A stretch of DNA of 64,000 bases from an uncultured Acidobacteriota bacterium (GTDB lineage Bacteria > Acidobacteriota > Thermoanaerobaculia > UBA5066 > Gp7-AA6), in NCBI GenBank assembly GCA_963764025.1, contig CAVXRK010000011.1, positions 320,999 through 384,998 on the forward strand. Reading direction: 5' to 3'. Shown piece by piece: positions 8,004 to 24,508 of the stretch. Position 1 is the stretch's first letter; each line of letters starts with the position of its first letter. The notes beneath the pieces are model-generated. The model saw only the letters and a program-made list of their open reading frames with translations, had not been told where the DNA came from and searched no databases. The position numbers were made by a program, and so were the translations under genes.

Positions 8004-8010
8004 TCCCGGA

Positions 8011-10415
8011 CCGCGAAGGGAGACCGCCTCGAGGCCCTCCGCGCCTACGGCGTTCTCGACACCGGCCCCGAGGGGGCGTTCGACGACCTGGCCGACCTCG
8101 CGTCCCGGATCTGCCAGGCCCCGATGGCGCTGATCAGCCTCGTCGACCGGGACCGCCAGTGGTTCAAGGCCAGGGTCGGTCTCGACATTTCCGAAACCCC
8201 CCGCGAGATCGCCTTCTGCGCCCACGCGATCCTGGGTTCCGAACTGATGGTCGTCCCGGACGCCCGCGCCGACGCGCGGTTCGCCGACAACCCGCTCGTG
8301 ACCGGCGACCCCGGGATCCGGTTCTACGCCGGCGCGCCCCTCATGACCGACAAGGGCCAGGCCCTCGGAACGCTCTGCGTGCTCGACCGGGTTCCCCGCG
8401 CCCTCACCCACGACCAGACCGCGGCCCTCGCCACCCTCTCGCGCGAGGTGGTCGCCCGGCTCGACCTGCGTAGGGCCAACGCCGAGCTCGAACGGGTCGT
8501 CGCGGGAGAGCGCGCCGCATCCGAGGCGCTGCGGTCGAGCGAGGAATTCAAGACGCGGATGATCGAGTGCAGCCGCGACTGCATCAAGGTCCTCGACCTC
8601 GAAGGCCGGCTGCTCTCGATGAACGCCGGCGGAATGGAGGCCCTCGAGATCTGCGACATCGGCCAGTACCTGGGCGCGTCGTGGATCGACTTCTGGAAGG
8701 GCCCGGACCGCGACTCGGCGCGGGCGGCGGTGGAAGCCGCACGCAACGGCGGCATGGGTCACTTCGTCGGCTACTTCGAGACCGTTCAGACGCGGCAGCC
8801 TCGCTGGTTCGACGTCGTCGTCAACCCGATCCTCGGCTCGGAGGGCCGGCCCGAGAGCCTCCTCGCCGTCTCGCGCGACGTCACCGAGCGCAAGCGCTCG
8901 GAGGACCTTTTCCGGCGGCTGACGGAGGCCACCGCCGCGACGACGGGCGCCGGATTCTTCAAGACGCTCGTGGAGACCCTGGCCACGGCGCTCCGCGTCC
9001 GGTACGCGTTCGTCACGGAGTGCGGTCCGGGCGACCCGACGGCGCGGATGCTCGCGTTCTGGAAAAACGAGTCGATCGCGGAGAACCTCGAGTACGGCCT
9101 GGCCGGCACGCCCTGCGAGGCCGTCATCCGGGGCGAGGTGCGGTTCTACGCGGACCGGCTGGCCGAGCGCTTTCCCGAGGACACGGGCCTCGTCGACTGG
9201 CGGGCCGAGAGCTTCCTCGGCATCCCGATGGTCGGTCACGACGGCGTCGTCATCGGCCATCTCGCGGTTCTCGACGACCGGCCGATGAGCGAGGCGTCGA
9301 TCGAAATCTCAGTCCTGCGGATCTTCGCCGACCGCGCCGCGGCCGAGCTCGAGCGGCTGCGGGCGCAGACCGAGCTCGAGCGCCTCAAGGATCGTCTGCA
9401 GGCCGAGAACGTGTACCTGCAGGAAGAGATCCGCACGCAGCACAACTTCGAGGAGATCATCGGAAACGCGCCTCCCCTGCTCGACGCCCTTTCGAAGGTG
9501 GAGCGTGTCGCGCAGACGGATTCGACCGTGCTGATCGCGGGCGAGACCGGCTCGGGCAAGGAGCTCTTCGCGCGCGCCATCCACAGCCGGAGCGCCCGGC
9601 GCCAGCGGCCCCTCGTCAAGGTCAACTGCGGAGCGATCCCGGCCGGCCTCGTCGAAAGCGAGCTCTTCGGGCACGTCAAGGGCGCTTACACGGGAGCCCT
9701 CGACAGGCGCACCGGCCGGTTCGAGCTCGCCGACGGCGGCACGATCTTCCTCGACGAAATCGGCGAGCTTCCGCCGGAGACGCAGGTCAAGCTGCTGCGC
9801 GTGCTGCAGGAACGGGAGTTCGAGCCCGTGGGTTCGTCGCGCACGATCAAGGTCGACGTGCGGATCATCGCGGCGACCAATCGCGACCTCGAGGAGGAGG
9901 TCCGGCGCGGGCGCTTCCGCGCCGACCTGCTCTACCGGCTGAACGTGTTTCCGATCGCCGTCCCCTCGCTGCGGGAGCGGCGGGGAGACATCCCGCTGCT
10001 CGTCGCCTTCTTCCTGACCGGCCTCGCCAAGCGGCTCGGCAAGCCGCTCGAAGGTTTCACGCGTTCGTCCATGAACGAGCTCTGCGCGTACTCCTGGCCC
10101 GGCAACATCCGGGAACTGCAGAACGTCGTGGAGCGAGCGGCGATCCTCGCGCCCGGGCCGACGCTCGAGGTGGAGCGGGGCCTGCTGCGGGGCGATCCGG
10201 CGGCGGCGACATCGGCGTCCGCATGGACGGCCCCGTCCGGCGGCGGCGCGAAGCTCGTCGAGATCGAGAAGTCCCACATCCGCGAAGTCCTCCGCTCGAC
10301 CCGGGGCGTGATCGAAGGTCCGGCCGGCGCCGCCCGACGCCTCGGCCTTCATCCCAACACGCTTCGGAGCCGCCTCAAGAAGTACGGCATCGAGCCCCGC
10401 CACGAAGCATCGTAG
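8011..10415 (+). CDS. sigma54-dependent transcriptional activator with a GAF-PAS-GAF sensor, AAA+ sigma54-interaction domain and Fis-type HTH
   Basis: GAF: [51 protein letters not shown]: [29 protein letters not shown]+: [22 protein letters not shown]-terminal HTH: [23 protein letters not shown]. No ATG/GTG/TTG upstream in frame. Confidence 0.8.
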
Positions 10416-10552
10416 CGACCACGAAATTTCGTGGCGCAGGGGCCGCGGCGCGAACCCCGCCAAAATGTATAAGCGACTGAATCCAAACGACTTCGGTCTG
10501 CCACTCGGCCGCCGAAAACCTGGCTCCGCCGTTGCTCTTGCAGGGGTCAGCC

Positions 10553-10795
10553 ATGTTGAGAATCAGCAAAGCCAACGAATGCCTGGTGGTCGAGGGACGG
10601 GTGGCCGGACCCTACGTCGACGAGCTCGCACGGGCGCTCGGGGACGCCGCGGGGATGAAGGCCATCGACGTCTCCGGCGTGGGGTACGTCGACGCGGCGG
10701 GCGCCAGGCTCCTGCAGCGGCTGGTGAAGCAGGGAATCGCGATCCGCGGAAGCTCCGCGTTCGTCGCCGAGACCCTGAAAGGAGCGTCGTCGTGA
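10553..10795 (+). CDS. STAS-domain protein (anti-sigma-factor antagonist-like)
   Basis: MLRISKANECLVVEGRVAGPYVDELARALGDAAGMKAIDVSGVGYVDAAGARLLQRLV. Its stop overlaps the GTG of the downstream ECF sigma (GTGA). Confidence 0.65.
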   Translation: MLRISKANECLVVEGRVAGPYVDELARALGDAAGMKAIDVSGVGYVDAAGARLLQRLVKQGIAIRGSSAFVAETLKGASS

Positions 10796-11433
10796 ACGTC
10801 GAGCTCTCACGCCGGATTCCGGATGCCGAGCCCGCGCCCGGGGCCGCGCCGGCCCTCCCCGGAGAGGCCGGGCTCCTCGAGCGGCTGCGCCGCGGCGACG
10901 AGGAGGCCTGCGAGATGCTCGTGCGCGCGCACAGCGGCCGGCTCCTGTCGGTCGCGCGGCGTTACCTGCGGTGCGAGGAAGACGCGCGCGACGCCGTCCA
11001 GGAAGGGTTCGTCGCGGCGTTCCGGGCGATCGGACGCTTCGAGGGCGGCTCGAGCCTCTCGACCTGGCTGCATCGCATCGTCATCAACGCGTGCCTGATG
11101 AAGCTGCGCTCGAGCCGGCGCCGCCCGGAGACATCGATCGAGGAACTGCTCCCGAAGTTCGACGAGTCCGGCCATCGCGTCGCGGAGCCCGAGGAATGGC
11201 GCGAATCCGCCGAGACCGCGCTCGACCGCAGTCAGACGCGGCGACGCGTCCGCGAGGCGATCGCGCAGCTTCCCGAGCACTACCGCTCCGTCCTGTTGCT
11301 CCGCGACATCGAGGAGCTCTCGACCGCCGAGGCCGCGCGCCTTCTCAACCTCACCGAGAACGCGGTCAAGATCCGCCTCCACCGCGCCCGCCAGGCCCTC
11401 CGCACCCTCCTGGGGTCAGCCCTGCAAGTCTGA
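10792..11433 (+). CDS. ECF sigma factor (sigma-70 group IV)
   Basis: GTG start. Region 2: LLERLRRGDEEACEMLVRAHSGRLLSVARRYLRCEEDARDAVQEGFVAAFRAIGRFEGGSSLSTWLHRIVINACL. Region 4: HYRSVLLLRDIEELSTAEAARLLNLTENAVKIRLHRARQAL. The last residues GSALQV and the stop are encoded by a REP element. Confidence 0.85.
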   Translation: MNVELSRRIPDAEPAPGAAPALPGEAGLLERLRRGDEEACEMLVRAHSGRLLSVARRYLRCEEDARDAVQEGFVAAFRAIGRFEGGSSLSTWLHRIVINACLMKLRSSRRRPETSIEELLPKFDESGHRVAEPEEWRESAETALDRSQTRRRVREAIAQLPEHYRSVLLLRDIEELSTAEAARLLNLTENAVKIRLHRARQALRTLLGSALQV

Positions 11434-11460
11434 AACTTGGGGTCAGCCCTGAAAGAATGA
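11412..11460. repeat. REP doublet (two direct copies of GGGGTCAGCCCTG(C/A)AAG...TGA) on the left flank of the RAYT
   Basis: Direct sequence match to the elements at 1388-1409 and, inverted, at 12451-12500. Confidence 0.8.
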
Positions 11461-11512
11461 CACTTCGGGGGCGGCTCGCGACAATCTAAAGACAGGGGCG
11501 GAGGCTGGAGCG

Positions 11513-12496
11513 ATGTCGCGTGCGCCGCGGATCGAAATCGCCGGAGGCGTCTACCACGTGATCGCGCGCGGGAACGAACGGCGCGACATCTTTCGAGACG
11601 ACTCCGACCGGCATCTCTACCTGGCGCGCCTCGCGGAATGCCGTGACCGATACCGATTCGGAGTCCTCGCCTACTGCCTCATGCCGAATCACGTCCACCT
11701 CGCCGTCGAACGAGGCCCGGTTCCCCTTTCAAAGATCATGCTCGCGCTCCACTCCTACTACAGCCAGAAATTCAATTTTCGACATGAGCGTGTCGGGCAC
11801 CTGTTCCAGGGCCGATACAAGGCTTTTCTGGTCGAACTCGACCGATACCTCGCTGCGCTCGTTCGCTACATCCACCTGAACCCGGTCAAGGCCGGCGTCG
11901 CCGATCGACCCGAGAGCTATCCGTGGTCGAGCGACCGGTGGTATCGCGAAGGTGGCGGTCCAAGCTGGCTCGACGTCGACTTCGTCCTCGCGCGTCTTGC
12001 GCCCAGCCGGTCCAGGGCCTGCGCCGCTTACCGGCGGTGGATGGGGTCCGGTGAACCGGACGACTACGACCGCGCGCGCCCGATCGGCCGCGTCGTGAAG
12101 GGCGACGAGAAGTTCGCCAAACGCTCGATGCGCGAGGCCCGCGTCACTCTTCCCAGAAGAAGTGGTTGGACGCCGTCGAGGTTCGCCGCCGCCGCGAGCG
12201 CGTTTCAGGGATTCTCACTCGGCCGGCTGAAGGGACCGTCCCAAGCCCGAGCGGAGTCACGGGCTCGGCTGATCACGGTCTTCGTCGCGAGGCGCGATCA
12301 TTCGATTCCAGCGTCGGCGCTGGCCAGGTGCTTCGACCGCGACGAATCCGCGTTCGCGCACGGCCTCCGAAGGCTCGAACGTGCGATCGCACGAAATCCA
12401 GAGCTCGCAAGGCACGTCGAGCGCGTGGCCGCCGCGCTGGGCCCCGAAGCGTCAGACTTACAGGTCAGGCCCCAGATTTCAGACTTTCAGGGCTGA
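11513..12496 (+). mobile_element. REP-associated tyrosine transposase (RAYT; IS200/IS605 Y1 HUH family) with a C-terminal extension
   Basis: RIEIAGGVYHVIARGNERRDIF...VLAYCLMPNHVHLAVE (HuH motif)...HLFQGRYKAFLV (catalytic Tyr region). Flanked by inverted REP doublets. The ORF reads through into the right REP (…SDFQG*). Confidence 0.8.
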
Positions 12497-12500
12497 CCCC
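12451..12500. repeat. REP doublet in inverted orientation on the right flank of the RAYT
   Basis: TCAGACTTTCAGGGCTGACCCC is the reverse complement of GGGGTCAGCCCTGAAAGTCTGA, preceded by the variant GTCAGACTTACAGGTCAGGCCCC. Confidence 0.8.
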
Positions 12501-13946
12501 AGGTCGAGGAGGGAGTTGAAGGAGCCGTGGGGGTCGGCCTCGCGCAGCGAATGGGAGGGGTCGGGGAGCCAGCGGGCCCCGTCGACGACGAGCTTGTAGC
12601 GGTGGCGGCCGGGCGGCGGGGCGGGGAGAGCCGGCGCGCCACACGCCGTCCGCCTGCCGCGCCATCGGAAGGCGCGACGCGTCCCAGCCGTTGAAGTCGC
12701 CGGCCACGGCGACCGACGTGGCGTCGTCGTCGTGGAAGGTGAAAACGAGGCGGCCGTCCTCGACGCGGGGCGGCCCACCGACTCGGCCGGCGCCGGCGTG
12801 CGCCTCCCGCCGCGCGACCGCCACCGCCGCGGCGGGGTCCACGACGCCATGCCCCTGGCGCAGCGCCGCGATGCCCGGGACCGGGCTCGCGCTCGCGAGC
12901 AGGATCCGGCGGACTTCCGCCGGCGTGAGCGCCGGATTGGCCTCGAGCATCTGCGCGACGACCGACGCGACGACCGGCGCCGCGAACGAGGTCCCGTCCA
13001 CGTGCTGATAGTGCGCAGCCACGATCTTCTCGGCGCGAAGCCGCTCTTCGACCCAGCTCCGCAGTGCCGCCGCCTGACGCGGGAGCTCCGGGATTCCCCC
13101 ACGGACCTCGTCCGCGAGACGCGCCAGGCGGTAATCCGGCGCCGATGCCAGCCGTGTCAGCGTCTGCGCGCGCCGCCAGGCCGGCGTGCCCGGCAGGATC
13201 GGCGCCGCGACCCACATCGCCGGAGCGATCAATTCCGGCTTGACGAGACCGTCGGCCGTCACGCCGAAGCTCGAGCAGTACGCCGCGAGGTGCCGCCGCT
13301 CGGGATCGTTTGCGTCGTCATATCCGCCGACGGCGATGACCGAGGGCGCCGTGGCTGGAGGCAATACGCGGGGCGCGGGTCCGCACCCGGAATTTCCCGC
13401 GGCGGCCACGAGCACCATGCCGCGGGCGACGGCCGCCTCGGCGAGCTGGTTGATCCGGCTCTCCGCGAGCGTCCGGTCCGCGTCGCCGCCGAGCGACATG
13501 CTGACGATCCGTATCGCGTGCCGTTCGTGGTTCGCGAGCACCCACTCGAGTCCGCGCTCGATCGCGTCGTCGGTGATTCGCCCGTCCCGCCCCACCCGCA
13601 CCAGCACGAGCGCCGCCTCGGGCGCGAGCCCGCGGTAGACGCCGTCGGAAAGCAACCCGCTGCCGGCGGCCGCGACGCACGTCTGCGTGCCGTGCCAGCA
13701 GTCCGGGGCCGGTATCTCCGCGTTCTCCAGCATGCCCTGCGGATCGTGGACGTCGTGATACGCCCGGATCCGCTCGCCCGGCTCGGTGATGTCGGGATGG
13801 GGATGGAAGCCTGAGTCCAGGAAGGCGACCGTCACCCCGCGGCCGCGGAGCGTCCCGTCGTCGCCGAAGCGCTCCGGGGTCGAGACCACGGCGAACCGAT
13901 TGGGCGCGTGGCCGTGGCCCGCGTGCAGCTCTCCCCCGTCGCTCAT
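12479..13946 (-). CDS. cytoplasmic S8 subtilisin-like serine peptidase with a C-terminal CBM48/E-set (glycogen-binding-like) domain; one frameshift near 12650
   Basis: Catalytic triad in context: VAFLDSGF (Asp), HGTQTC (His), GTSFAAPVVAS (Ser). No signal peptide. C-terminus reads RLVFTFHDDDATSVAVAGDFNGWDASRLPMARQADGVWR, then continues in the adjacent frame as ALPAPPPGRHRYKLVVDGARWLPDP (shift in a GG run). The stop is supplied by a REP. Confidence 0.75.
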
Positions 13947-14006
13947 CCACGGATGAGATGCCGCCGGGGGCCGCCGGTTACGCGTCGGCGGTGAAAATCG
14001 CCGCGC

Positions 14007-14858
14007 TCAGCGAGAGGCTGGCAGGACGACGCCCTGGAAGAGTCCCTCGGCCACCCAGTCGCGCAGCCACCGGAAGAGCTGGTCGCCCGCGGAGCCCTGG
14101 AGCCCACGCGCCGCCGTTGCGACGGCCTTGCCGAACGGCCGGCCCTTGACCAGTGCAGCGAGGAAGTCGTGGGCCGGCTTCGAGAGGTCGAGGCGCCAGA
14201 CTTCGTAGTTCTTCCGATAGACGGCGATCCAGGTGGGGCGCCGTCCGGTCGGCGGATGATCGTGATCGTCGTCCTTGACCGACTGCAGGTAGGCGTTGAC
14301 GGGATACGCGAACGCCGCGACCCGCAGGGCCGCCGACGGACGGAGCACGACCCCGGGCCAGGCCGCCTCCGGGACGCGCGCGATCTCTTCGGCCGGCCAG
14401 GCGGGCGACTCGGGCGCGTCGAAGACCTCGGTGACGAGGCTTTCGAGGCGGGCGAGGTCGGCGACGAAGGCCTTCCGGCGGATGCCCTGCGAGCCCCGGA
14501 TGAATTCGGGAAGGCGGTCGCCCAGGCGGTTCAGGGTGTAGCTCCGGGAGGGGTGCGCCGCGACATAGCGCGTCACGAGGTCCGCGAAGTCCTCGGCTCC
14601 GAGCAGGTGCGCCACGGCCGGAAAGTCGTTCTCGAGCGCCTCGACCATGCGGAGCAGATACATGCCCTGGTAGACGCCGACCCGTTCGACCGGCGTCAGC
14701 GTCTTCGACGGCCGGATCACCCGCGCGATCTCGTCCGGCTCGAGCTCGGCGCGCGCAGCGGGCGATGTCACGGCCTCCTCGGCCGTGCCCGGCTGCTCGA
14801 TGACCGCCTGCATCCAGCGCTGGAGGCGCGGGAGCGGCAGCTCAAGAGGCCGCGGCAA
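14007..14858 (-). CDS. DUF2063-family protein (BufC/MbnC-like partner of a DUF692 MNIO enzyme)
   Basis: 283 aa, immediately downstream of and overlapping the DUF692 gene. Paralogous to the 18072..18932 gene (shared LPFL...LARLE, YVAAHP/YLGVFP regions). Confidence 0.7.
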   Translation of the reverse strand: MPRPLELPLPRLQRWMQAVIEQPGTAEEAVTSPAARAELEPDEIARVIRPSKTLTPVERVGVYQGMYLLRMVEALENDFPAVAHLLGAEDFADLVTRYVAAHPSRSYTLNRLGDRLPEFIRGSQGIRRKAFVADLARLESLVTEVFDAPESPAWPAEEIARVPEAAWPGVVLRPSAALRVAAFAYPVNAYLQSVKDDDHDHPPTGRRPTWIAVYRKNYEVWRLDLSKPAHDFLAALVKGRPFGKAVATAARGLQGSAGDQLFRWLRDWVAEGLFQGVVLPASR

Positions 14859-15771
14859 TCGCCTTCTCCTCGTTCCGGAACCGCCGCGCCTTGAGGGCCT
14901 CCGCGTGGACCTCCTCGAACGACGGGATCTCGCCGTCCCACTCGAAGAGCGTCGCGACGTTGCCCGTCCGCGCGACCGCGTGGCGATAGAGCTCCCAGAC
15001 CTCGGGAATCGCCCGGTCGCTGTGCGTGTCGAGGATGTGCGTGCCCTTGTTCGTGTGGCCGGCGAGGTGGTACTGCGCCACGCGCGACGGATCGATCGCG
15101 TCGAGGTAGAGCTTCGGGTCGAATCCGTGGTTGAACGCGCTGACGTAGACGTTGTTGACGTCGAGGAGCATGCCGCAGTCGGCCTTCTCCATGAGCCGGC
15201 CGAAAAACTCCCACTCCGGCATGCTCGAGGCGGAAAACTCCGCGTAGGTCGACGCGTTCTCGAGGATCAGGGGCCGCTCCAGAACGTCGGAGACGATTCT
15301 CACGCGCTCGGCGACGTGGGAAAGCGCCTCCTCGGTGAGCGGCATCGGGAGCAGGTCGTGCGTGTTTCGTCCGGAAACGCCGGTCCAGCACAGGTGGTCC
15401 GACACCCAGAGGGCGCGGGTGCGGGCGGCGAGGGCTTTCAGTTTCGCGAGGTATCCGTGGTCGAGCGGATCGGTCGAGCCGATCGACATCGACACGCCGT
15501 GGAGCACGACCGGATAGCGCTCGGCCACCTGGTCGAGGACCCAGGCGGGCCGGCCGCCGGTGTCGAGGTAGTTCTCGGAGAGGACCTCGAAGAAGTCGAT
15601 CTCGGGCTTCTTCTCGAGGATGTGGGGATAGTGGACCGTGCGGAGACCGATGCCGACGCCGAGGTCGGGAAAGTTCCAGCGGTTTCGGGTGAGCGGCTTC
15701 ACGTGAGACTCGATCTTACGATTGGAAAGTGAACCGGGGGGCGCGGCCTCGGCCGCGACCCCCCGCTTCAC
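14842..15771 (-). CDS. DUF692 multinuclear non-heme iron oxidative enzyme (MNIO; MbnB/BufB-like)
   Basis: LGVGIGLRTVHYPHILE...VLHGVSMSIGSTDPLDHGYLAKLKAL...[11 protein letters not shown]...LILENASTYAEF...GMLLDVNNVYVSAFNHGFDP...YHLAGH..LDTHSDRAIPEVWELY...TLFEWDGEIPSFEE. An alternative GTG start lies about 15705. Confidence 0.85.
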   Translation of the reverse strand: MKRGVAAEAAPPGSLSNRKIESHVKPLTRNRWNFPDLGVGIGLRTVHYPHILEKKPEIDFFEVLSENYLDTGGRPAWVLDQVAERYPVVLHGVSMSIGSTDPLDHGYLAKLKALAARTRALWVSDHLCWTGVSGRNTHDLLPMPLTEEALSHVAERVRIVSDVLERPLILENASTYAEFSASSMPEWEFFGRLMEKADCGMLLDVNNVYVSAFNHGFDPKLYLDAIDPSRVAQYHLAGHTNKGTHILDTHSDRAIPEVWELYRHAVARTGNVATLFEWDGEIPSFEEVHAEALKARRFRNEEKAIAAAS

Positions 15772-15781
15772 GACGGTGAAG

Positions 15782-16204
15782 TCAGGCCGCCTTCTTCGGA
15801 GCCACCGGGACCGCGCAGCCGCCCTTGCCCTTGCAGGAGTTCTTGCCGGCGCAGCCGTTCTCGCCGCTCTTGCAGCCGCCCTGGCCCTTGCAGGAGTTCA
15901 TGCCCTTGCAGGAGTGCTTCATGTCGGCCGAAGCGCAGCCGCCCTTGCCCTTGCAGGAGTTCTTGCCGGAACAGCCGTTGTCGCCGGCCTTGCAGCCGCC
16001 CTTCCCCTTGCACGAGTTCATGCCCTTGCAGACGTGCTTGTCGGAGGTCGCGGCCGCCTTGTCCTTGGCGCCCTTCGCCCGCCTGCCGCTCTTGCCGCCG
16101 GACTTCGCTTCGTTCTTCGGCAGAGCCGAGAGCAGCTGGGAGCCCGCGAGAACGCCGGCCACCGCGAGACCGATCGCCTTCACCTTCAGATCGCCCTTCT
16201 TCAT
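15782..16204 (-). CDS. Sec-signal Cys-rich RiPP precursor, bufferin BufA2-like (BUF_6/12Cys type); 12 Cys in two tandem 33-aa repeats
   Basis: AAGGAG SD 7 nt before the ATG. MKKGDLKVKAIGLAVAGVLAGSQLLSALP signal peptide. Core: HVCKGMNSCKGKGGCKAGDNGCSGKNSCKGKGGCA, then a second copy HSCKGMNSCKGQGGCKSGENGCAGKNSCKGKGGCA. Lies directly upstream of the MNIO and DUF2063 genes. Confidence 0.8.
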   Translation of the reverse strand: MKKGDLKVKAIGLAVAGVLAGSQLLSALPKNEAKSGGKSGRRAKGAKDKAAATSDKHVCKGMNSCKGKGGCKAGDNGCSGKNSCKGKGGCASADMKHSCKGMNSCKGQGGCKSGENGCAGKNSCKGKGGCAVPVAPKKAA

Positions 16205-16277
16205 CCCTGTCTCCTTTCGTCTCCCCGTCTCGGGGTCGCGAATCACCGCTGCAGCCGACATGGCTGCCGCGACTTAC

Positions 16278-16303
16278 CCACGTTGCCGGGTCAAGCCGTT
16301 CGA
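16278..16303 (-). promoter_or_regulatory. candidate ECF-type promoter (GAACGG-N15-CGTGGG) upstream of the precursor operon; speculative
   Basis: Minus-strand sequence tcGAACggcttgacccggcaaCGTgggtaag lies about 75 nt upstream of the precursor ATG. A sigma54-like GG-N10-GC (TGGGTAAGTCGCGGCA) overlaps it. Confidence 0.2.
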
Positions 16304-16539
16304 GCCCCTCGAGCGACTTGAGCCGCGAATTCTATCCCCCCCGCCCGGTGTACCGCGCCACCCTTCGCCTTCCGGAAGCCGCCACCCGCCACGGTGAACG
16401 AGACCCGCGTCCCGCGCCGGTCTCCCGCGGAGTACGCGGAAACCGCCAGGGCTGGATCTCGATCCGAGGAGCGGGCGAGCAGATCGAAGAGGTTGCGCGT
16501 CCGGGCGTCCCCCGGCTCGGCAAAGATGTGGATGGTCAT
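16291..16539 (-). CDS. small hypothetical protein (82 aa), doubtful
   Basis: High-GC3 ORF MTIHIFAEPGDARTRNLFDLLARSSDRDPALAV... immediately upstream of the precursor gene. No recognisable family. It overlaps the putative promoter region. Confidence 0.2.
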   Translation of the reverse strand: MTIHIFAEPGDARTRNLFDLLARSSDRDPALAVSAYSAGDRRGTRVSFTVAGGGFRKAKGGAVHRAGGIEFAAQVARGARTA

Positions 16540-16648
16540 GGGGCTTGGATGCCCCGGCCGTCCCGAGGTTTCGGCGCTCCCCCCGCGCCTCCGGGACGAT
16601 CCTGAAGGATGGGTTAAGAATTTCCCGAGGAGCCCGGGCCGGGCCGCC

Positions 16649-17655
16649 TCAGGCGGAGCGTGGGGGCGGGAAGCGTCCGGCCTGGACGTCGCTCAGGAAA
16701 CCCAGGAGGTGCCGGAAGTAGGGCTCCTGGTCGTCCCACATCGCGAGGTGGCTGCCGTTCTCGCAAATCGCCACCCGGGAACGCGGAAGAAGGGTCCCCA
16801 TCCGGCGGATGTCGTCCGGGTTCATCTCGTCGTACTTCGCGCCGACGACGAGCGTCGGAACGGAGATCTTCGAAGGTCGTCCCAGCGGTCCCAGTCCTTG
16901 AAGGTCCCCGTCACGACGAACTCGTTGGGCCCCTGCATCGTGCCGTAGACCTGGTTGTTGATGTGCTTGAACGCGCGCGCGACCGGGTCCGGCCAGGGAT
17001 CGACGCGGCACACGTGACGCTTGTAGACCCCCTCGTACATCGCCTCCTGGTACTCGGGAGCGTCGTACTTGCCCTGGGCTTCGTACTTCTCGAGCGTCGC
17101 CAGCAGATCCTTCGGCAGCGCCGCGCGGAGCTTCGCGACGTAGGCCATGTACGACGGAATCGAGGCCGTCATGCTCGAGAGCACCAGGCCCTTCAGGTGC
17201 TTCTGGTATTTCAGCGCGTACTCGATCGCGAGCATGCTGCCCCAGGACTGACCATAGAGATAGAAGTCCTCGAGCCCGAGGGCCGACCGCACCTGCTCGA
17301 CCTCCTCGCGGAACCGGTCGATCCTCCAGAGCGACGGGTCGTCGGGCTGGTCGGAGTAGAAGGATCCGAGCTGGTCGTAGTAGTAGAACTCGACGCCCGC
17401 CTGCGGCAGGAAGTCTTCGAAGCACTCGAAGTACTCGTGCGTGACGCCCGGCCCGCCGTGGAGCGTCAGCATCTTGATCGGTCCCCTGCCGAGCTTCTTC
17501 GTCCAGACCTTGTACTTGCCGTCGACGGGGATCAGCCGGATGCCGGCGGTCTTGACCGCGGGTGTCGGCGCGGGACCCGGCCCCGCCGCGGCGAAGCGGG
17601 AGTGGGCGAGCGATGCGGCGGCGAGGGAGAGGAGAGTCCGGCGGTCGAGAGGCAT
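16649..17655 (-). CDS. exported alpha/beta hydrolase, proline iminopeptidase-like (S33 family); frameshift near 16850
   Basis: Tat/Sec-like N-terminus MPLDRRTLLSLAAASLA. HGGPGVTHEYF. Nucleophile elbow GQSWGS. The C-terminus continues in another frame (PKISVPTLVVGAKYDEMNPDDIRRMGTLLPRSRVAICENGSHLAMWDDQEPYF). Confidence 0.7.
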
Positions 17656-17754
17656 GGAGCGAATAGTAGGACAGACCGCAGACGGCAGACCGCGGACGGC
17701 AGAAGGAAAGGACGGCAGAGGCGCCGGGCCGTCTGCCGTCCGCCGTCCTGACCG

Positions 17755-18075
17755 CTACGACTTCTTGACCGACTTCTTGGCCGCCGGCTTTTCCGCCGCC
17801 ACCTTCGTCAGGCTCCCGCCCTGGATCTTCAGACAGGTCTCGGGTTCGAGCCGCAGGAACCCCTGGCCCTTGCAGGCATTCGAGCCGTGGCAGCCGGAGT
17901 GGCGGCATCCTTCGGCGCCGCAGTCGCCGGTGCCCTTGCACTTGTTGACGCCCCAGCACGGCTTGAGCTTGCCGTCGTCGGGAGCGGGTTTCTGGTCCTG
18001 GGCCCGGAGAGCCGCCGGCAGCGACAGCACTCCGGCCAGCGCGGCCGCGAGCAGGGACTTCGACCGAGGGTTCAT
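17755..18075 (-). CDS. DUF2282-type Sec-signal Cys-rich RiPP precursor (bufferin BufA1-like)
   Basis: [35 protein letters not shown] signal peptide. Core: KPCWGVNKCKGTGDCGAEGCRHSGCHGSNACKGQGFLRLEPETCLKIQGGSL matches the DUF2282 pattern (C.G..KC..DC....sC.G.n.CKG.G....TC....GG). Its ATG overlaps the stop of the DUF2063 gene (ATGA). Confidence 0.8.
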   Translation of the reverse strand: MNPRSKSLLAAALAGVLSLPAALRAQDQKPAPDDGKLKPCWGVNKCKGTGDCGAEGCRHSGCHGSNACKGQGFLRLEPETCLKIQGGSLTKVAAEKPAAKKSVKKS

Positions 18076-18932
18076 GAGAATTCCTCCTTGAGGACGTCGA
18101 GAGCCCCGGTCCATCCGGTGCTCCGCTTGATCACGAAGACGTCGCGCTCGGCGAGAGCGCGGAACGACTCGACGAGGCGGTGGAGCCCGGCCGCGTCCGA
18201 GCCGGCGCCCGTCAGCTCCTGCAGGTCCGGAAGCGTCGCGTCGCCGCACGACGCGGCCTCGACGAGGGCGGCCTCGGCGTCGTCGATCCGTTCGACGCGC
18301 ACGCGGCCGTCGCGGCGGAAGATCAGGACGTTCGCGGGCCGGCCCTCGAGGGCGATCGAGATCGCCTCGTCGTCATCCTCGAATCGGCAGGCCCAGAGCT
18401 CGTCGAGCGGCCAGGCCGAGCGCACGAGCGCGACACCCGGAAGAAGGCCGAACCGCAGGGCGAGGAGCTCCTCGGGGGTGCGGCGGCGCAGGTCCTCCCA
18501 TCGGGCGGGGGTTGCGTCCGCCGCGACGAACGACTCGCCGATGGTCCGCTCCAGCCGTGCGAGGTCCGGCAGGAACGGGAGGTCCACGGTCGCCCGGTCG
18601 AACTCGAGAAAGGCAGGGAGCCGGTCGCCGACGCGGGCGAGGTCGAACGAGCGGGGCGGGAAGACGCCGAGGTAGCGCGTCATGAGCGCCTCGAAGGCGT
18701 CGGCGCCGAGGATCCGCCGGATCGCCGCGTACTCGAGGCCCGCGACCTCGACGATCCGGGCCACGTAGCCGTGGGCGTAGACGTGCCAGCGGTCGGCGAC
18801 CGATCCGCGGCGGGGCCGGCGGAAGGCCGTCTCGCGTTCCGCCTCCGACCGCGGCCGCCGGCCGGTGAGGTCGTCGATGAAACCCTGCTGCGCGAGACGA
18901 AGCTCGTGGACGTCAGGCCGCGGTCGCCGCAT
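18072..18932 (-). CDS. DUF2063-family protein (second copy)
   Basis: [24 protein letters not shown]...[54 protein letters not shown]. 286 aa. Located between the MNIO and precursor genes. Confidence 0.7.
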
Positions 18933-19780
18933 GAAACGCCTCCTCCGAATTTCGCTGAATCTCTTCGGCGCGCCGCGCCTCGGCGAGCACCGTCGCGAGC
19001 GGCGGGATTGCCGCGTCCCACTCGATGAGGGTCGGCACGGGGCCAAACCGGGCCACGGCGGACCGATAGAGGCCCCAGACCGCGTCGGCGACGGGATGGT
19101 CGTGGGTGTCGATGACGAGGTCGCCGTGGTCTTCGTGGCCGGCCAGATGCATCTGCCCGACCCGATGCGCCGGCAGCCGCCTGAGGAAACGCCGCGCGTC
19201 GAGGCCGTGGTTGCGGGCGTTGACGTAGAGGTTGTTGACGTCGAGCAGGATCCCGCAGTCGGCTTCGTCCGCGACCGCCGCGAGGAAGTCCGCCTCCGAG
19301 AGGCGGGACGCCGCGTGCTCGACGTAGCTCGAGATGTTCTCGACGAGGATGCGGCGGCCCGAGGAACTCCTGGACGCTCGCGGATCTTCCGCGCCGCGCG
19401 ACACACGGCCTCTTCGGTGAGCAGCAGCGGGAGCAGGTCGTGGCTGTTGTGGCCGCCGAGGCCGGTCCAGCAGAGGTGGTCCGAGACGATGACCGGAGCA
19501 CGCGGTCACAGAGGGCCTTGAGGCGACGCAGGTATCCGCCATCGACGGGCTCGGCCGAACCGAGCGACATCGAGACGCCGTGGAGCGCGACCGGGTAGTC
19601 CCGGCGCACTCGGTCGAGCATCGCGAGCGGGCGGCCCCCGTCGACCATGAAGTTCTCCGAGATCGCTTCGAAGAACGGAACCGCAGGCCGCTCGGCGAGG
19701 ATTTCGTCGAAGTGCTCCTTGCGCAGACCGATCCCGCATCCCGCGAAGCCGCGCGGGCGAAAGCCGCGCCCGCGTTTCAC
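18913..19780 (-). pseudogene. DUF692 MNIO (second copy), broken by about 3 frameshifts (GGG runs and others)
   Basis: Frame 1: [28 protein letters not shown]...[28 protein letters not shown]. Frame 3: [30 protein letters not shown]. Frame 2: [12 protein letters not shown]...[18 protein letters not shown]...MHLAGH...[16 protein letters not shown]...[11 protein letters not shown]. Confidence 0.65.
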
Positions 19781-19784
19781 TTGA

Positions 19785-20243
19785 TCACCGCCGCCCCGCG
19801 AGGGCGATCTCCTCGTCGACCTGGGGCGAATCGCCCGAGACGCCGATCGCGCCGACGAACTGGCCGCCCGAGAAGATCGGCACGCCGCCCTGGAGCGGAG
19901 TGAAGTCCTCGAGGGCGAGCGTGACGATGCGGCCGTTCCTGACCTGCTCCTCGAAGTACCGCGTCGGCCGCTTGAAGTGCGCCGCGGTGCGCGCCTTGCC
20001 GATGCCGACCTTGATCGAGCCGACCTGCGTCGTGTCGAGCCGCTCGAGGAGGAGCAGATTCCCCGCGTCGTCGACGAGGACGATCACGACCGGGAGCCCC
20101 CGCCGTTTCGCGTCGGCTTCCGCGGCCGCGGCCGCCGCCTTCGCGCCCTCGAGGGTGAGAACCTTCTTGTCCGCGACCTGCTCCGCGCGGGCGGAGGCGG
20201 TGAAGATCGTCATTGCGAGCAGAGTCGTGGCGGTTTTGTTCAT
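19785..20243 (-). CDS. secreted DUF336 protein (GlcG/HbpS-like heme-binding family)
   Basis: Signal peptide [20 protein letters not shown]. Core: [21 protein letters not shown]...[12 protein letters not shown]....[39 protein letters not shown]. Confidence 0.75.
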
Positions 20244-20299
20244 ATCAGCGTCCTCGGAAATTCGATGCCGGCGCAGCGCCCGCGTTTCCGAAACGAAAC

Positions 20300-20400
20300 G
20301 GGGTCAGGTCTGGATTTTTCGGATCGTGCGAATCGGGAAGCGGTCGCGGCCGCCCGCTCGATCCAAACCGAAAAAACGAGACCTGACCCCGCCTAGAAGC
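20300..20400. repeat. long imperfect inverted repeat (GGGGTCAGGTCTGGATTTTTCGG ... CCGAAAAAACGAGACCTGACCCC), REP-like arms
   Basis: The arms share GGGGTCAG with the REP family. Lies between the gluconolactonase stop and the DUF336 start. Possible terminator or REPIN variant. Confidence 0.5.
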
Positions 20401-20402
20401 CC

Positions 20403-21340
20403 TAGCCGCGGGTCGTCGTGCGGATGCGGCCGATCGAGTGGTTCGCGGCCACGAAGAGAGTCGAGCCGTCTTCGCCGAAGGCGCAGTTGCCGGTGGCCAC
20501 ACCCGTCTCGATCGAGCCGAGGAGGGCGCCGTCGGGCGCGAACACGGAGACGCCCCGGGCGCCGCGGCCCACACGTTGCCGTGGACGTCGACCTTGAGGC
20601 TGTCGGGAACGCCCGGGCCGGAGGCCGCCCAGGCACGAGCCGTCGTGGAAGCACTCGCGCGGGCCCGAGCGTGCCGTCGGGCTTCACGTCGAAGGCCGTA
20701 CCAGACGGGCCGCGCGGGATCGGCGTTGGCGACGTAGAGCGTCTTCTCGTCGGGGGAGAAGCCGATCCCGTTGGTGGCCCGCGACCTCGGATGGTCAGCA
20801 GCGTCAGCGACGCCGTCCCGCGCGAGCCGGTAGACGCCCTGGAACGGGAGCTCTTTGGCCGGGATCGCCGAAGCGCGCGCGGGCAGGCCGAAGGGCGGGT
20901 CGGTGAAGTAGAGATCGCCGTTCGATTTGAAGGTCAGGTCGTTAGGGCTGTTGAGGCGCTTTCCGTCGAACCGGTCGGCCAGGACCGGTCAAGGCGGCCG
21001 TCCGCCTCGCGGCGCACGATCCGCCGGTCGCCGTGCTGGCAGAAGATCAGCCGGCCCTGCGAGTCGAAGGTCGAGCCCGTTCGAGCCGGGCTCGCGGCCC
21101 GGTGAACGGCGCGGCGCCCGGAGTATCCGCTCGGCGAGAGGTAGGTCGGTCAGGCCCTCGCCCGCCTTCCAGCGGAGGATCGCGTTCGAAGGGACGTCGG
21201 AGAAAAGGAGGGCCTTCTCGCGTCGCGATCCCAGACCGGCCCCTCCGCCCAGGCCACGCCGTCGGCGACCCGTCTCGAGCGTCGCACCGGCGCGGCAGCG
21301 AGCGCGTCGAGGCGCGCGTCCTTGCGGACCACGCGGCCGA
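20403..21340 (-). pseudogene. SMP-30/gluconolactonase/LRE-like (SGL) protein, copy A, multiply frameshifted
   Basis: N-terminal ADGVAWAEGPVWD...ALLFSDVPSNAILRWKAGEG. C-terminal GVPDSLKVDVHGNVWAAAPG, then after a shift in a GGGG run GVSVFAPDGALLGSIETGVATGNCAFGEDGSTLFVAANHSIGRIRT*. Boundaries are approximate. Confidence 0.55.
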
Positions 21341-21344
21341 GCGG

Positions 21345-22345
21345 GCCCGAGGGACGGATGCCCGGAATCCCCAGCCGCATCTTGTAGAGGCCCGATCCGG
21401 GCGCAGAGGTAGAGCGTCTTGCCGTCCTCGTCTCCCCACGCGAAGTTGTGCGGGTGCTTCGGCGGCACGATCGTTCCGAGGTGGCTGCCGTCGGGCCCGA
21501 GAGGATCCACAGCCCGCCGGGCCCGAGACGTAGAGGTTGCCCTGCCGCGTCGACCTTGATCCCGTCGAGCGCGTCCTCGCCGGGCGCCGCGGTCATATCG
21601 AAGAACACCTCGCCCGTTCGCCGAGCCGTGCCGTCGGCGTCGGACTCGTAGCGCATGATGACCTTCTTCTTCTCGTCCCAGTGGCCGACGTAGAGGAATT
21701 CTCGTCGGGCGAGAAGGCGATGCCGTTCGGCCCGGTCAGCTCGGTGCGTCAGCAGCTGCAGCTTGCCTTCCTGCGCAGCGCGTAGACGCCGCTGAACGGC
21801 AGCTCCTTGCGCGGGTCGTCGAAGAATTTCGGGAGGCCGAACGGCGGGTCGGTGAAGTAGAGCGTGCCGTCCGACCGGTAGACGAGGTCGTTCGGGCTGT
21901 TGAGACGCTTGCCCTCGTACCGGTCGGCGAGCACCGTCATCGCGCCGTCCTGTCCAGGCGGACGACGCGGCGGTTGCCGTGCTGGTCGATGGTGAGCCGG
22001 CCCTCGCGCGTCGAGCGTGAGGCCGTTGGAGCCGGGCTGGCCGTACTCGGCGATGTCGGCGCCGGAGTACCCGCTCGGGCTGCCGGAAGGACCGAGACGC
22101 TGGCCCGTCGGGCGCGTATTGTAGATGATGTTGGCTGTTGGGGTCGCGAGAAGAGCAGGTACCTCCGTCGGCGCACCCAGACCGGGCCTTCGGTGAACTG
22201 GAAGCCCTCCGCGAGCTTCCAGACCTTCGGGTTCGGCCCGCACGATCGCGTCGAGCGCCGGATCGTTGCGGACCACCTCACGTTCACCTCGGCCGGCGTG
22301 ATCGCATCGGCGCCGGATCGCCCGGGTAGAATTCGAGCGTGGCGC
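21345..22345 (-). pseudogene. SGL gluconolactonase-like protein, copy B (tandem paralog), multiply frameshifted
   Basis: Pieces lie in three frames: PKVWKLAEGFQFTEGPVW; GKRLNSPNDLVYRSDGTLYFTDPPFGLPKFFDDPRKELPFSGVY; GIKVDAAGQP..GGLWIL; GSHLGTIVPPKHPHNFAWGDEDGKTLYLCA. Confidence 0.5.
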
Positions 22346-22959
22346 ATGCGGATCTAGATGAAGTTCGTCGGCGGATTCGAGAGCGGGCCGTTGATGCCGA
22401 AGATCGCGAGCTGGATCTTCTGGCCGGGCTTCACGTCGCGGCCGACGACCAGGCGGTTGGGGGCGTTCCAGCCGGCGACCACGCGAGCCGCCCCTCTGCC
22501 CGAGGCGACGCGTGCAGCTCGCCGTCGACCCAGACCTCGGCGTAGTCGTCGAGCGACGTCTCGAAGACGACCGTCGATGCCGGTCGTGATCGAAGTCGCC
22601 GACCTTCGCCGGAATCGTCGACGCGCGATGCGGTACCAGTTGAAGCAGAGCCGGCCGGTGCGCGCGCCGCGGCTCCGAGCGCGTCGGAGCGATCGACTCC
22701 CATCCGAGTCGTCGAAGTCCGCCCCGCCGGCGTGCGGCGTCGTAGTCGTAGGTCTCGACCGGCCGGCGCCGGTCGGCTGGTTGTCGGGGCCGGGCCCGCG
22801 GAAATCCGTCTCGACGATCGAGGCGTCGCTGTAGCGCCACTGGCCTTCGACGAGCGTCACGCCCTTCGGCCGTCGCGAGATCGATCGCCGCCTCGGGCGC
22901 GCCCGTCGGCGCGTCCTGGGGCGCCGGCTGCGAAAGAGCGGCGGCGGCGCCGAGGAGAA

Positions 22960-23335
22960 GCGCCGCCGCCGCGAGGAGGACCGGTTTCGTGGCGACATCG
23001 TCAGCGCACCTTCACGACGTAGTAGCTGAATGGCCGCCGGGACCTTCTGGAACCAGTGGGGCATGCCCGCCGGAACGATCATGACGTCACCCTTCTCGAG
23101 CTGCCGCGTCTCGCCGGCGGCGATCGACGGCGCCGCGGACCTCGTCCGGCGCGGTCGTCTTCGGGTCGACCACCGTGCCGCCCGTCACGAACGTGGCCGT
23201 GCCGTCGAGAACGTAGATGATGTCGGCGTCCTTGCGCGTGGACCTCCGCCATGGCCGGCCCCGTCGCGCCGCGTGGCGTGGACCATGTAGCGCTCGCCCT
23301 GGTCGAAGAGCACCGCGCCCTTCGCGAAGGCCGCC
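22960..23335 (-). pseudogene. cupin-domain protein, frameshifted; possibly contiguous with the upstream DUF336 ORF
   Basis: AAFAKGAVLFDQGERYMVHATRRDG...DADIIYVLDGTATFVTGGTVVDPKTTAPDEVRG...GDVMIVPAGMPHWFQKVP is spread over three frames. Confidence 0.45.
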
Positions 23336-23339
23336 CGGA

Positions 23340-23859
23340 CCGTGGCCGGCGTCGAAATAGGTGACCTTCGCCGGCGCCGCCCCGACCGCCGCGGCCCCGA
23401 GCGATCGCGAGCTCCTCGTCCTGCGGCCGCGCTGGCCGCGCCGCGAGACGCCGACCGCGCCGACGATCGGCGCCGTCGACCATGATCGGCACCCCGCCCC
23501 GGAGCGGCGTGAAGTCGCCCACCGTCGTCATGGCGGTGCGGCCCTTGTTGATCAGGTCTTCGAAGAAGCTCGTCGGCTTCTTGAAGAGCGCCGCGGTCCG
23601 CGCCTTGCCGATCGAGATCAGCCCGCCCGCGGCGAAGGTCCCGTCGATCCGCTCGACGGCCATGAGGTTCCCGCCGTCGTCCACGACCGCGATCGCGCCG
23701 GTCGTGCTGCGCTTCTTCGCTTCGCCGACGATCGCGCCGATCGCCCGGTGCGCCCCGTCGAGAGTCAGCGTCTTCTTCTCCATCCACTGGCCGCGCGCCC
23801 GCCGCGGAGATCAGCATCCCCGCGGCCGTCCAGGCCAGGATCGCATTGCGTCGCATCGT
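23340..23859 (-). pseudogene. second DUF336 (GlcG/HbpS-like) gene with a signal peptide, frameshifted
   Basis: MRRNAILAWTAAGMLISAAGA (frame a), then [69 protein letters not shown]...GGVPIMVDG...QDEELAIA (frame b). Confidence 0.55.
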
Positions 23860-24405: not shown

Positions 24406-24508
24406 GAGGGGCTCACACTTCACTCCCGACCCTTCGATGCCGGTGCGGGGGGGAGGTTTCGGCGGATTTTCGGACGATCCCGATCTTTGACATAATCCGC
24501 CCACTCTC

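Follow-up and report, generated by a model that had tools for sequence, protein, structure and literature searches.

We analysed a 64,000-nt stretch of DNA (about 70% GC) from an uncultured soil Acidobacteriota bacterium (contig CAVXRK010000011.1), the whole of which is called the window below, and found that two clusters of the Buf2 family of bufferins lie next to each other on its minus strand. Bufferins are the largest known group of RiPPs (peptides of ribosomal origin that undergo post-translational modification) that are modified by multinuclear non-haem-iron oxidases (MNIOs, DUF692), and they represent a recently recognised bacterial route against copper stress. One of the two clusters encodes a precursor with 12 Cys, the other a shorter precursor with 7 Cys, and each of them contains the genes of an MNIO and of a DUF2063 partner protein. 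This interpretation, together with the maturation and the regulation proposed below and with assembly errors as the source of the frameshifts in the locus, is held with considerable confidence. The core of the feature is known biology; the 7-Cys clade with its reversed gene order and its HbpS-like first gene, the tandem mosaic of the two clusters and the ECF-type (extracytoplasmic function) promoter motif shared with a candidate sigma factor appear to be undescribed variants.

Gene content and family assignment

Nine co-oriented genes follow each other on the minus strand from 20243 down to 12479. The upstream operon is opened by the gene of an HbpS-like protein of the DUF336 (GlcG) family (152 aa, 19785-20243; PF03928, 116.4 bits), followed by a frameshifted BufB-type MNIO gene (18913-19780; PF05114, 87.6 and 191.5 bits on its fragments), the gene of a DUF2063/HvfC-type, BufC-like partner (286 aa, 18072-18932; PF09836, 43.2 bits) and that of the 106-aa, Buf2-like precursor with 7 Cys (17755-18075; NCBIfam BufA2, 54-56 bits). 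After a gene for an alpha/beta hydrolase of the proline iminopeptidase family (S33; 16649-17655; TIGR01250, 275 bits), which has one frameshift near 16873, the downstream operon encodes the 140-aa Buf2-type precursor with 12 Cys (15782-16204; BufA2, 55.1 bits), an intact BufB-type MNIO (14842-15771; PF05114, 358.5 bits) and a second BufC-like protein of the DUF2063/HvfC type (283 aa, 14007-14858; PF09836, 72.8 bits). The row ends with the gene of an S8 subtilase with a C-terminal CBM48/AMPK1_CBM domain (12479-13946; PF00082 and PF02922; one frameshift near 12625), which lies beyond the range of 14007-20243 covered by the initial annotation of this DNA. The coordinates, the strand, the protein lengths, the Cys counts and the start/stop overlap in that annotation proved to be accurate on gene calls and profile searches, and so did the opposite gene orders, which are precursor, MNIO, DUF2063 (A-B-C) downstream and MNIO, DUF2063, precursor (B-C-A) upstream. 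The nearest relatives of the window are metagenome-assembled genomes (MAGs) of uncultured Acidobacteriota and Thermoanaerobaculia.

On the NCBIfam equivalog profile MNIO_BufB (NF050167, cut-off 310 bits) the downstream MNIO scored 349.8 bits and the intact orthologue of the upstream MNIO in the related locus L081 scored 375.3 bits, while the pieces of the upstream gene in the window reached 101.8 and 184.8 bits. Both the downstream MNIO and the L081 orthologue stayed under the cut-offs for HvfB (NF003818; 259 and 269 bits, respectively, against 360), MbnB (TIGR04159; 56.4 bits for the downstream enzyme against 325), ApyH and ChrH, and the downstream MNIO matched the solved structure 3bww with 172.8 bits. 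The two DUF2063 proteins, for which the PF09836 cut-off is 27.2 bits, align over nearly the whole HvfC profile, the upstream one over positions 19-235 of 237. Matches to DUF692 (PF05114) and DUF2063 (PF09836) were significant in both operons, and they support the initial proposal of MNIO and DUF2063 RiPP clusters of the bufferin type, whose Cys-rich precursors bear apparent signal peptides.

The assignment of the precursors had to be changed. The 106-aa precursor had been labelled as a DUF2282 protein and the two precursors had been regarded as two different families, but the search with the local Pfam DUF2282 model (PF10048.14) gave no match for the 106-aa protein even at E<=10 and matched one out of 20 scanned relatives. 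On the BufA2 profile (NF050166, cut-off 60 bits), on the other hand, the 7-Cys precursor was matched with 54-55.8 bits over positions 6-76 of 79 (E about 1e-15), the 12-Cys precursor in two stretches with a comparable E-value (about 1e-15), and all 20 scanned relatives of the 7-Cys precursor were matched as well (best E 2.3e-22). The missing PF10048.14 match and the 7 Cys instead of 4 speak against a Buf1/DUF2282 identity of the 106-aa precursor. As judged from their sequences, both precursors are of the Buf2 type, one being a duplicated 12-Cys form and the other a single-domain form with an extra Cys, so that two Buf2 subtypes stand here in place of two families. EGKCG repeats are present in neither precursor, and together with the low HvfB scores this sets the clusters apart from the Oxazolin/HvfB type (Buf_EGKCG); a methanobactin (MbnABC) identity is opposed by the score of 56.4 bits on MbnB, by a partner that is DUF2063 and not MbnC, and by the apparent signal peptides of the precursors.

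The absence of a DoxX gene had also been noted as an oddity. However, bufD is missing from the founding Caulobacter buf2ABC operon, and Buf1 matures and functions without DoxX (PMC11626156); in L081, where the orthologous locus is intact, none of the genes called encodes DoxX either.

Frameshifts in the locus

The upstream MNIO gene is split over three frames (19741-19502, 19487-19380 and 19350-18934) by a 1-nt deletion near 19499 and 1-nt insertions near 19378 and 19361, all of which fall within about 140 bp. Its orthologue is intact in L081, in the locus L004 and in all metagenome loci. The three pieces share 85-91% amino-acid identity with L081, and their ratios of non-synonymous to synonymous substitution rates (dN/dS) against L081 are 0.085, 0.137 and 0.124, next to 0.081 for the intact paralogue and 0.09-0.18 for the other neighbours (the second segment of the hydrolase was excluded from this calculation), i.e. 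the broken gene bears the same mark of purifying selection as its intact surroundings. The frameshifts are not confined to this gene. Comparison of the window with L081 revealed at least five of them in four genes, namely the upstream MNIO (at least two net shifts), the hydrolase, the S8 subtilase and a sigma54-type activator, and comparison with L004 added further shifts in a MIP channel gene (4150-5060) and in a gene for an HbpS-cupin fusion (23130-23800). Altogether at least six conserved genes are interrupted within about 22 kb of the window, and each of them is intact in L081 and/or L004. A similar fragmentation of conserved genes was seen in L001, a long-read MAG of the same clade.

Since the frameshifts hit many genes that are conserved intact in relatives, and since the dN/dS of the broken MNIO is about 0.1, they are most likely assembly errors. 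The frameshifted DUF692 gene, which had been presented as a biological feature, does not stand as such: it is intact in both L081 and L004, at least four genes are frameshifted in the window, and its pieces keep a dN/dS of 0.085-0.137. As a side observation, the pattern of the frameshifts suggests an unpolished long-read assembly.

It might be supposed instead that the upstream cluster is a true pseudogene remnant, the 7-Cys precursor of which is left unmodified or is modified in trans by the downstream BufB and BufC. Three indels within about 140 bp of the MNIO gene, none of them in a long homopolymer, would fit with this, and precursor genes without a linked MNIO, perhaps modified by enzymes encoded elsewhere, have been described (PMC12452194). 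Nevertheless we consider it unlikely, because the orthologue is intact in L081, in L004 and in all metagenome loci, because the identity and dN/dS of the pieces are like those of the intact neighbours, and because the hydrolase, S8, sigma54 activator, MIP and HbpS-cupin genes are also shifted in the same 22 kb, which is typical of long-read assemblies such as L001.

The upstream operon and the 7-Cys clade

The ATG of the 7-Cys precursor at 18075 overlaps the stop codon of the DUF2063 gene as ATGA. Read from the sequence, the N-terminus of the precursor has a basic n-region, a hydrophobic core and an AxA-like site (…LSLPAALRA|QDQ) of the Sec type, and its Cys are found at residues 40, 46, 52, 57, 62, 68 and 81. 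The dN/dS of this precursor against L081 is 0.033.

The best 120 homologue clusters of the 106-aa precursor were compared. In 59 of them, and in all metagenome loci, the exact spacing C-5-C-5-C-4-C-4-C-5-C-12-C is kept, while in 59 other clusters the precursor contains six Cys, for the most part spaced canonically as C-5-C-5-C-6-C-5-C-12-C. All six canonical Cys positions of the 6-Cys relatives are retained in the 7-Cys precursor. The seventh Cys sits on a three-residue insertion (G-C-R) and is invariant in the clade, with a nearly invariant His two residues later, as can be seen in the consensus CWG(V/I)N.CKG.GDCGA.GCR.SGCHGSNACKG.GFLR…TCLKIQGG. The profile of this precursor family found nothing at E<=1 among the sequences of the PDB.

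The gene order is likewise characteristic. Every 7-Cys locus with enough flanking sequence has the order B-C-A (L004, L081, L083, L085, L090-L106 and L108), with one possible exception, L107, where no DUF2063 match adjoins the precursor; in L087, a canonical 6-Cys relative, the order is A-B-C. The overlap between the bufC stop and the precursor start recurs in L081, and an 8-nt overlap is found in L083. The HbpS-like gene stands immediately upstream of the MNIO gene in 11 of the 14 distinct 7-Cys loci with enough flank, and it was found near the cluster in none of the 79 other Buf2-type loci. The upstream operon is thus a member of an Acidobacteriota subclade of its own, in which the core has one extra invariant Cys-Arg, the precursor gene comes last and is coupled in translation to bufC, and the gene of a presumably exported HbpS-like protein usually comes first. 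In the literature searched, no paper that describes a 7-Cys variant with B-C-A order was found.

The downstream operon and the 12-Cys precursor

The 12-Cys precursor consists of two tandem 6-Cys repeats, each with the spacing C-5-C-5-C-6-C-5-C-5-C. Its N-terminus, again read from the sequence, shows a basic n-region, a hydrophobic core and the site …QLLSA|LP of the Sec type, and its gene is preceded by a well-matching AAAGGAGA ribosome-binding site. The downstream DUF2063 gene overlaps the MNIO gene by 17 nt, and the start of this MNIO may be internal, near 15651, as it is called in L081.

When the downstream MNIO was scanned against 185,579 species genomes, 583 relatives were confirmed. In the best 80 of these 583 loci, drawn from Acidobacteriota, Planctomycetota, Polyangiaceae and other groups, the MNIO gene mostly comes after that of a homologous Cys-rich precursor and almost always before a DUF2063 gene. 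The downstream operon is a canonical, widespread Buf2 cluster of the duplicated-domain kind. Forms with 12 Cys make up about 10% of Buf2 (PMC12452194), and the 12-Cys Buf2 of Cognaticolwellia aestuarii (WP_077285100; PMC12452194) shares with the protein described here the duplicated 6-Cys domain and the position directly before MNIO and DUF2063 genes, the domain being preceded by a signal peptide, an apparent one in the window. The core is alike in other 12-Cys Buf2 precursors too; the one in the window differs by a long Lys-rich linker, by its 55 bits on BufA2 and by the proline-iminopeptidase-family gene that stands upstream of it in its clade.

An alignment of 17 loci revealed a conserved leader of the 12-Cys operon on the minus strand, with a GATCC-N17-CGTAC block (16458-16432), a TAGAAT box (16334-16329) and, further 3' up to 16205, a CAGCC…GGCTG hairpin and then a CCCCG…CGGGG hairpin abutting the ribosome-binding site. 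GATCC-N17-CGTAC was dropped as a candidate for a shared promoter, having a single occurrence in the window (0.6 expected by chance), and its conservation in close relatives may come in part from an overlapping conserved reading frame. An 82-aa open reading frame (ORF) at 16291-16539 was likewise rejected as a gene: it is uncalled in L081 and its protein conservation fades in distant loci. The Rfam scan of 11000-26000 assigned no family to the 12-Cys leader; the only match in that range, CcsR1 at 22933-22988 on the minus strand (26.2 bits against a gathering threshold of 65.3, E 0.008), is probably due to chance.

Tandem arrangement in relatives

Two relatives hold the full tandem (HbpS-like, B, C, 7-Cys A, hydrolase, 12-Cys A, B, C, S8) in intact form: L081, a contig of 1.76 Mb whose nucleotide sequence is 87.6% identical to the window, and L004, a Thermoanaerobaculia MAG assembled from short reads. 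The tandem was also found, whole or partial, in the metagenome contigs L090, L097, L098 and L099. The loci closest to the downstream operon (L001-L011 except L004) are without the upstream operon and the S8 gene, and in them a STAS gene borders on the series hydrolase, 12-Cys A, B, C. The super-cluster is a mosaic of modules rather than a fixed nine-gene unit.

Proposed regulation of the clusters

By aligning the regions 5' of the HbpS-like gene in ten loci, an ECF-type promoter-like block, G(A/T)AAC(C/G)-N13-16-CATC(C/G)AA, was found. In the window it reads GAAACG-N15-CATCGAA at 20261-20288 on the minus strand and ends 17 nt before the HbpS-like ATG, and it occupies the same place in L004, L081, L083, L090, L098, L099 and L100. 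The downstream operon has its own copy, GAAACC-N15-CATCCAA at 16545-16572 on the minus strand, in the 444-nt spacer before the 12-Cys precursor; the motif precedes precursors of the 12-Cys type in L001, L008, L010, L011, L021, L081, L090 and L099 and in the Planctomycetota loci L069 and L076 as well. Altogether six copies of GAAAC(C/G)-N15-CATC(C/G)AA exist in the window, all on the minus strand and each just 5' of a minus-strand gene; besides the two already mentioned, they are located at 24460-24433 (a small ORF), 23911-23884 (HbpS-cupin), 5045-5017 (MIP channel) and 1385-1358. A degenerate copy, GTAACC-N14-CATCTCA, lies just upstream of the S8 gene, which in L004 has a perfect motif 34 nt upstream. 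Related loci totalling 1.6 Mb contained 44 copies, against less than one predicted by chance on a back-of-envelope estimate, and 41 of the 44 share the strand of the buf genes. The usual sites are 5' of the HbpS-like gene, the 12-Cys precursor, S8 (L004), the hydrolase (L001, L005) and MNIO (L085).

An ECF sigma factor gene is encoded at 10792-11433 on the plus strand, preceded by a gene for an 80-aa protein (10553-10786, plus strand) and by that of the sigma54-type activator (7742-10412, plus strand; frameshift near 8000). Orthologues of this sigma factor with 49-55% identity stand directly upstream of Buf2-like clusters in the Planctomycetota loci L053, L069 and L076, where the motif is situated between the sigma factor gene and the precursor. 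The motif was not found in eight other distant Buf2-type loci examined, most of which have no orthologue of this sigma gene and none of which has it directly upstream. Published surveys report no sigma-factor genes in Buf2 clusters. The window motif is similar to the sigmaF site that was defined by experiment in Caulobacter, GTAACC-N16-CGAA (PMC3511200), and SigF controls both buf1 and buf2 in Caulobacter (PMC11626156). These parallels suggest that the adjacent ECF sigma factor is the likely driver of the motif. Because both clusters and several neighbours bear the same ECF-type motif, the two clusters probably form one stress regulon with the HbpS-cupin gene, the small ORF, the MIP channel and, by way of its degenerate copy, S8.

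A sigma54-type promoter, TGGC-N7-TTGCT (TGGCTCCGCCGTTGCT), was recognised at 10521-10536 on the plus strand, before the 80-aa and ECF genes, and it is conserved in L004, L081 and L089. The arrangement looks like a two-tier cascade, in which the sigma54 activator would switch on the ECF sigma factor and the latter would switch on the motif-bearing regulon. As a further observation, the activator carries a zf-HC2 anti-sigma domain at its N-terminus, with GAF and PAS domains after it, and such a fusion of an anti-sigma domain with a sigma54 activator is unusual. No promoter was found in the sigma70 scan, and the 7 terminator-like sites were about as many as chance would give (5.9 expected).

Neighbouring genes

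The initial annotation considered the HbpS-like, S33 and S8 genes to be unusual. They are indeed outside the published core of bufferin clusters, but the analysis does not support their being bufferin-specific: the hydrolase is an ancestral neighbour and HbpS-like genes occur without an MNIO. Genes other than those of precursor, MNIO, DUF2063 and DoxX are present at very low proportions in bufferin clusters (Antoine et al. 2025, PMC12452194); the main text of that work does not mention HbpS, DUF336 or a peptidase, its three text supplements do not mention HbpS, PF03928, Peptidase_S8, Abhydrolase, SGL or GlcG, and no paper pairing HbpS/DUF336 with MNIO or bufferin was found in the literature searched.

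The HbpS-like protein has a Sec-type signal peptide as read from the sequence, with predicted cleavage before EQ, and its closest solved relatives are EfgA (6bws) and HbpS (3fpv), at E-values of 1e-8 to 1e-14. The L085 version is a fusion with a cupin domain, and an SGL beta-propeller gene often adjoins the HbpS-like gene in 7-Cys loci. Homologues with 61-66% identity were found in three contexts, in none of them next to an MNIO gene, and in the locus L113 ECF, zf-HC2, S8, SGL and HbpS genes are together with no buf genes. These contexts make it less likely that the HbpS-like protein is a factor dedicated to bufferin maturation, and they favour co-regulation in a stress regulon rather than direct participation in that process. 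The hydrolase has a twin-arginine-like N-terminus (MPLDRRTLLSL…), and its intact L081 orthologue scores 348.9 bits on TIGR01250. It stands upstream of the 12-Cys precursor in L001-L011; since it is kept in relatives that do not have the upstream operon, it is an older neighbour of the 12-Cys operon and is outside the 7-Cys unit. The S8 protein has no signal peptide as read from the sequence, and in L089, L102 and L103 its gene is the next one after that of the 7-Cys precursor.

These three proteins might be dedicated tailoring or processing factors of the bufferins and form a new, extended pathway, for example by N-terminal trimming at proline, proteolytic release or hand-over of haem or iron. 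Their positions, the HbpS-like gene being first in the 7-Cys operon, S8 coming right after the 7-Cys precursor and the hydrolase before the 12-Cys one, would be in accordance with such roles, and all three genes bear or adjoin the same promoter-like motif. Several facts make this rather improbable. The HbpS-like homologues occur in unrelated contexts, L113 being without MNIO altogether; the S8 protein has no signal peptide although the peptides would be exported, and its gene is missing in L083, L085, L098 and L099; the hydrolase is missing in L083, L085, L102 and L103 and is kept in one closely related clade only, where it may reflect plain synteny; and BufB and BufC suffice for maturation (PMC11626156).

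On the other side of the HbpS-like gene, 20300-24460 on the minus strand holds the small ORF, the HbpS-cupin fusion and a large SGL (SMP-30/gluconolactonase-like) beta-propeller gene, several of which are frameshifted. The secreted HbpS-cupin fusion and the very large double SGL/arylesterase-like beta-propeller (860 aa in L004) are at 20300-23973 (minus strand) in the window and at L004:1136-4773; these genes recur by the 7-Cys operon in many loci, and in L113 they stand beside ECF, zf-HC2 and S8 genes with no MNIO. Between the S8 and ECF sigma genes lies a gene of a Y1_Tnp, a tyrosine transposase-like protein associated with IS200/REP elements (11513-12496, plus strand), which converges on S8; it is present in L081 too and is not found at the same position in L004 or L089.

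The left flank (1540-7670) contains redox and stress genes, among them the MIP/aquaporin-like channel with the motif before it, a GMC oxidoreductase (2547-4271), a glyoxalase/VOC-like C-terminal region and AhpD/CMD-family proteins (7104-7670 and about 5094-6400), which are possibly further members of the same regulon. A GAF-HlyD/CusB-like membrane-fusion gene near the cluster reflects conserved synteny; as to a metal-efflux context, no CusA/CzcA or cop genes were present among the ORFs scanned. At a greater distance, an ORF with a DndB (DNA-sulfur-modification-associated) domain (33162-34784, plus strand; 49 bits) is unrelated to the bufferin finding, and several long ORFs at 28-42 kb without a Pfam match are probably in the wrong frame in DNA of 70% GC.

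Discussion

The closest characterised counterpart of the clusters is buf2ABC of Caulobacter vibrioides (CCNA_03001-02999; Leprevost et al. 2024, PMC11626156), the founding Buf2 (BUF_6/12Cys) cluster, in which likewise a Cys-rich precursor carrying a Sec signal, an apparent one in the window, is encoded together with a BufB-type MNIO and a DUF2063 protein but no DoxX, in the A-B-C order of the downstream operon and with an ECF promoter of the GTAACC…CGAA type, a control that is proposed for the locus described here. The Caulobacter precursor has one 6-Cys domain, whereas here there are two tandem domains (12 Cys) or 7 Cys in a precursor encoded after bufC; no HbpS-like first gene is stated for Caulobacter, whereas one opens the upstream operon here, and the host is an Acidobacteriota bacterium; and the sigma factor, accompanied in Caulobacter by the anti-sigma factor NrsF, is found here beside a sigma54 activator with zf-HC2. 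Buf1/DUF2282 bufferins and gigABCD of Cupriavidus metallidurans share the enzyme pair and the export logic. Buf1 peptides, however, have four conserved Cys and usually DoxX and SigF/NrsF genes, unlike the 106-aa precursor with its 7 Cys and its BufA2 match just below the cut-off. The HbpS-like protein shares its domain (PF03928) with HbpS of Streptomyces reticuli, GlcG, EfgA and the C-terminal domain of PduO. HbpS is secreted and acts in oxidative stress linked to iron and haem (PMC3754957); the protein found here also has an apparent signal peptide, its similarity to the solved members is moderate and, unlike in Streptomyces reticuli, no SenS/SenR genes are near its gene.

In Caulobacter both Buf1 and Buf2 carry central Cys at -4 Da (thiooxazole) and an outer disulfide, are exported by Sec and protect against copper (PMC11626156). 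By analogy, the BufB-type oxidase and its DUF2063 partner would turn the central Cys of the precursors into 5-thiooxazoles in the cytoplasm, the peptide would be exported by Sec and signal peptidase would remove its N-terminus. The outer Cys pair, which in the 7-Cys peptide would be residues 40 and 81, could then form a disulfide, and the folded periplasmic peptide may buffer excess copper. Five Cys of the 7-Cys peptide and up to eight of the 12-Cys peptide are candidates for modification.

A number of points speak against this interpretation. Both precursors fall slightly short of the BufA2 cut-off (55.1 and 54-56 against 60 bits), and relatives of the 7-Cys precursor bear a precomputed PF10048.16 'BufA1' label of a newer Pfam, by which the Buf1/Buf2 boundary is blurred; this label is not surprising, because Buf1 and Buf2 are structurally very similar, a similar fold being predicted for both (PMC11626156). 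Five central Cys, an odd number, are present in the 7-Cys core, which has also gained a conserved His and Arg, so that it may be modified in another pattern than Caulobacter Buf2 and may prefer another metal. The AlphaFold2 model of the 106-aa precursor, built from a 20-sequence alignment, was unusable (predicted local distance difference test score, pLDDT, 43.5; predicted template modelling score, pTM, 0.15). Since HbpS-like homologues also stand away from any MNIO gene, the connection with HbpS may be no more than regulatory. Compared with the Caulobacter sigmaF site, the motif has a spacer with about 2 nt more, and the ECF sigma gene itself was found to have no copy upstream. Finally, the frameshifts are outside long homopolymers, so that a very recent, real inactivation in this strain is possible.

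The products might also not be copper-buffering thiooxazole peptides at all, and might arise by another MNIO chemistry (oxazolone-thioamide, as in methanobactin or oxazolin) or serve against another stress, such as another metal, iron or haem, or oxidants like hypochlorite. The question of thiooxazole versus oxazolone-thioamide is still being resolved experimentally (bioRxiv 10.64898/2025.12.15.693703, 10.64898/2026.06.05.730506), and the gained Cys, Arg and His of the 7-Cys core could be read in this direction. So could the neighbours, which are HbpS-like (haem/iron/redox), cupin, AhpD-like and GMC oxidoreductase genes and not cop or cus genes, and the reported response of SigF/NrsF-type systems of other bacteria to hypochlorite. 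Nevertheless, both MNIOs pass the BufB cut-off (the upstream one by its L081 orthologue) and fail those of HvfB, MbnB, ApyH and ChrH, the precursors lack EGKCG repeats, and the Buf2 that has been characterised contains thiooxazoles and gives protection from copper (PMC11626156); there is little probability left for such products, and we keep to copper-buffering Buf2 bufferins as the expected ones.

It is a similarly doubtful possibility that the 7-Cys clade constitutes a separate periplasmic stress-defence module, in which a five-heterocycle metallopeptide and an exported, haem/iron- or redox-binding HbpS-like protein would be placed under a two-tier sigma54/ECF switch. The idea is based on the HbpS-BufB-BufC-precursor order, on the extra Cys-Arg and His, and on the frequent linkage with SGL, HbpS-cupin and S8 genes. 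The promoter motif of this proposed switch is also used by Buf2 clusters of Planctomycetota.

The current understanding of bufferins is not overturned by this locus. For genome mining it carries a caution, since what was taken for a frameshifted DUF692 gene is most likely an artefact of long-read assembly. The locus documents a well-delimited Acidobacteriota subfamily of bufferins, marked by a seventh invariant Cys, a reversed and coupled gene order and a co-transcribed HbpS-like gene. This 7-Cys subfamily is a natural experiment on the number of Cys handled per MNIO/BufC pair, and on the recognition of the precursor when its gene comes last. The shared ECF-type motif, together with a cognate ECF sigma factor, offers a testable regulatory model that extends across two phyla.

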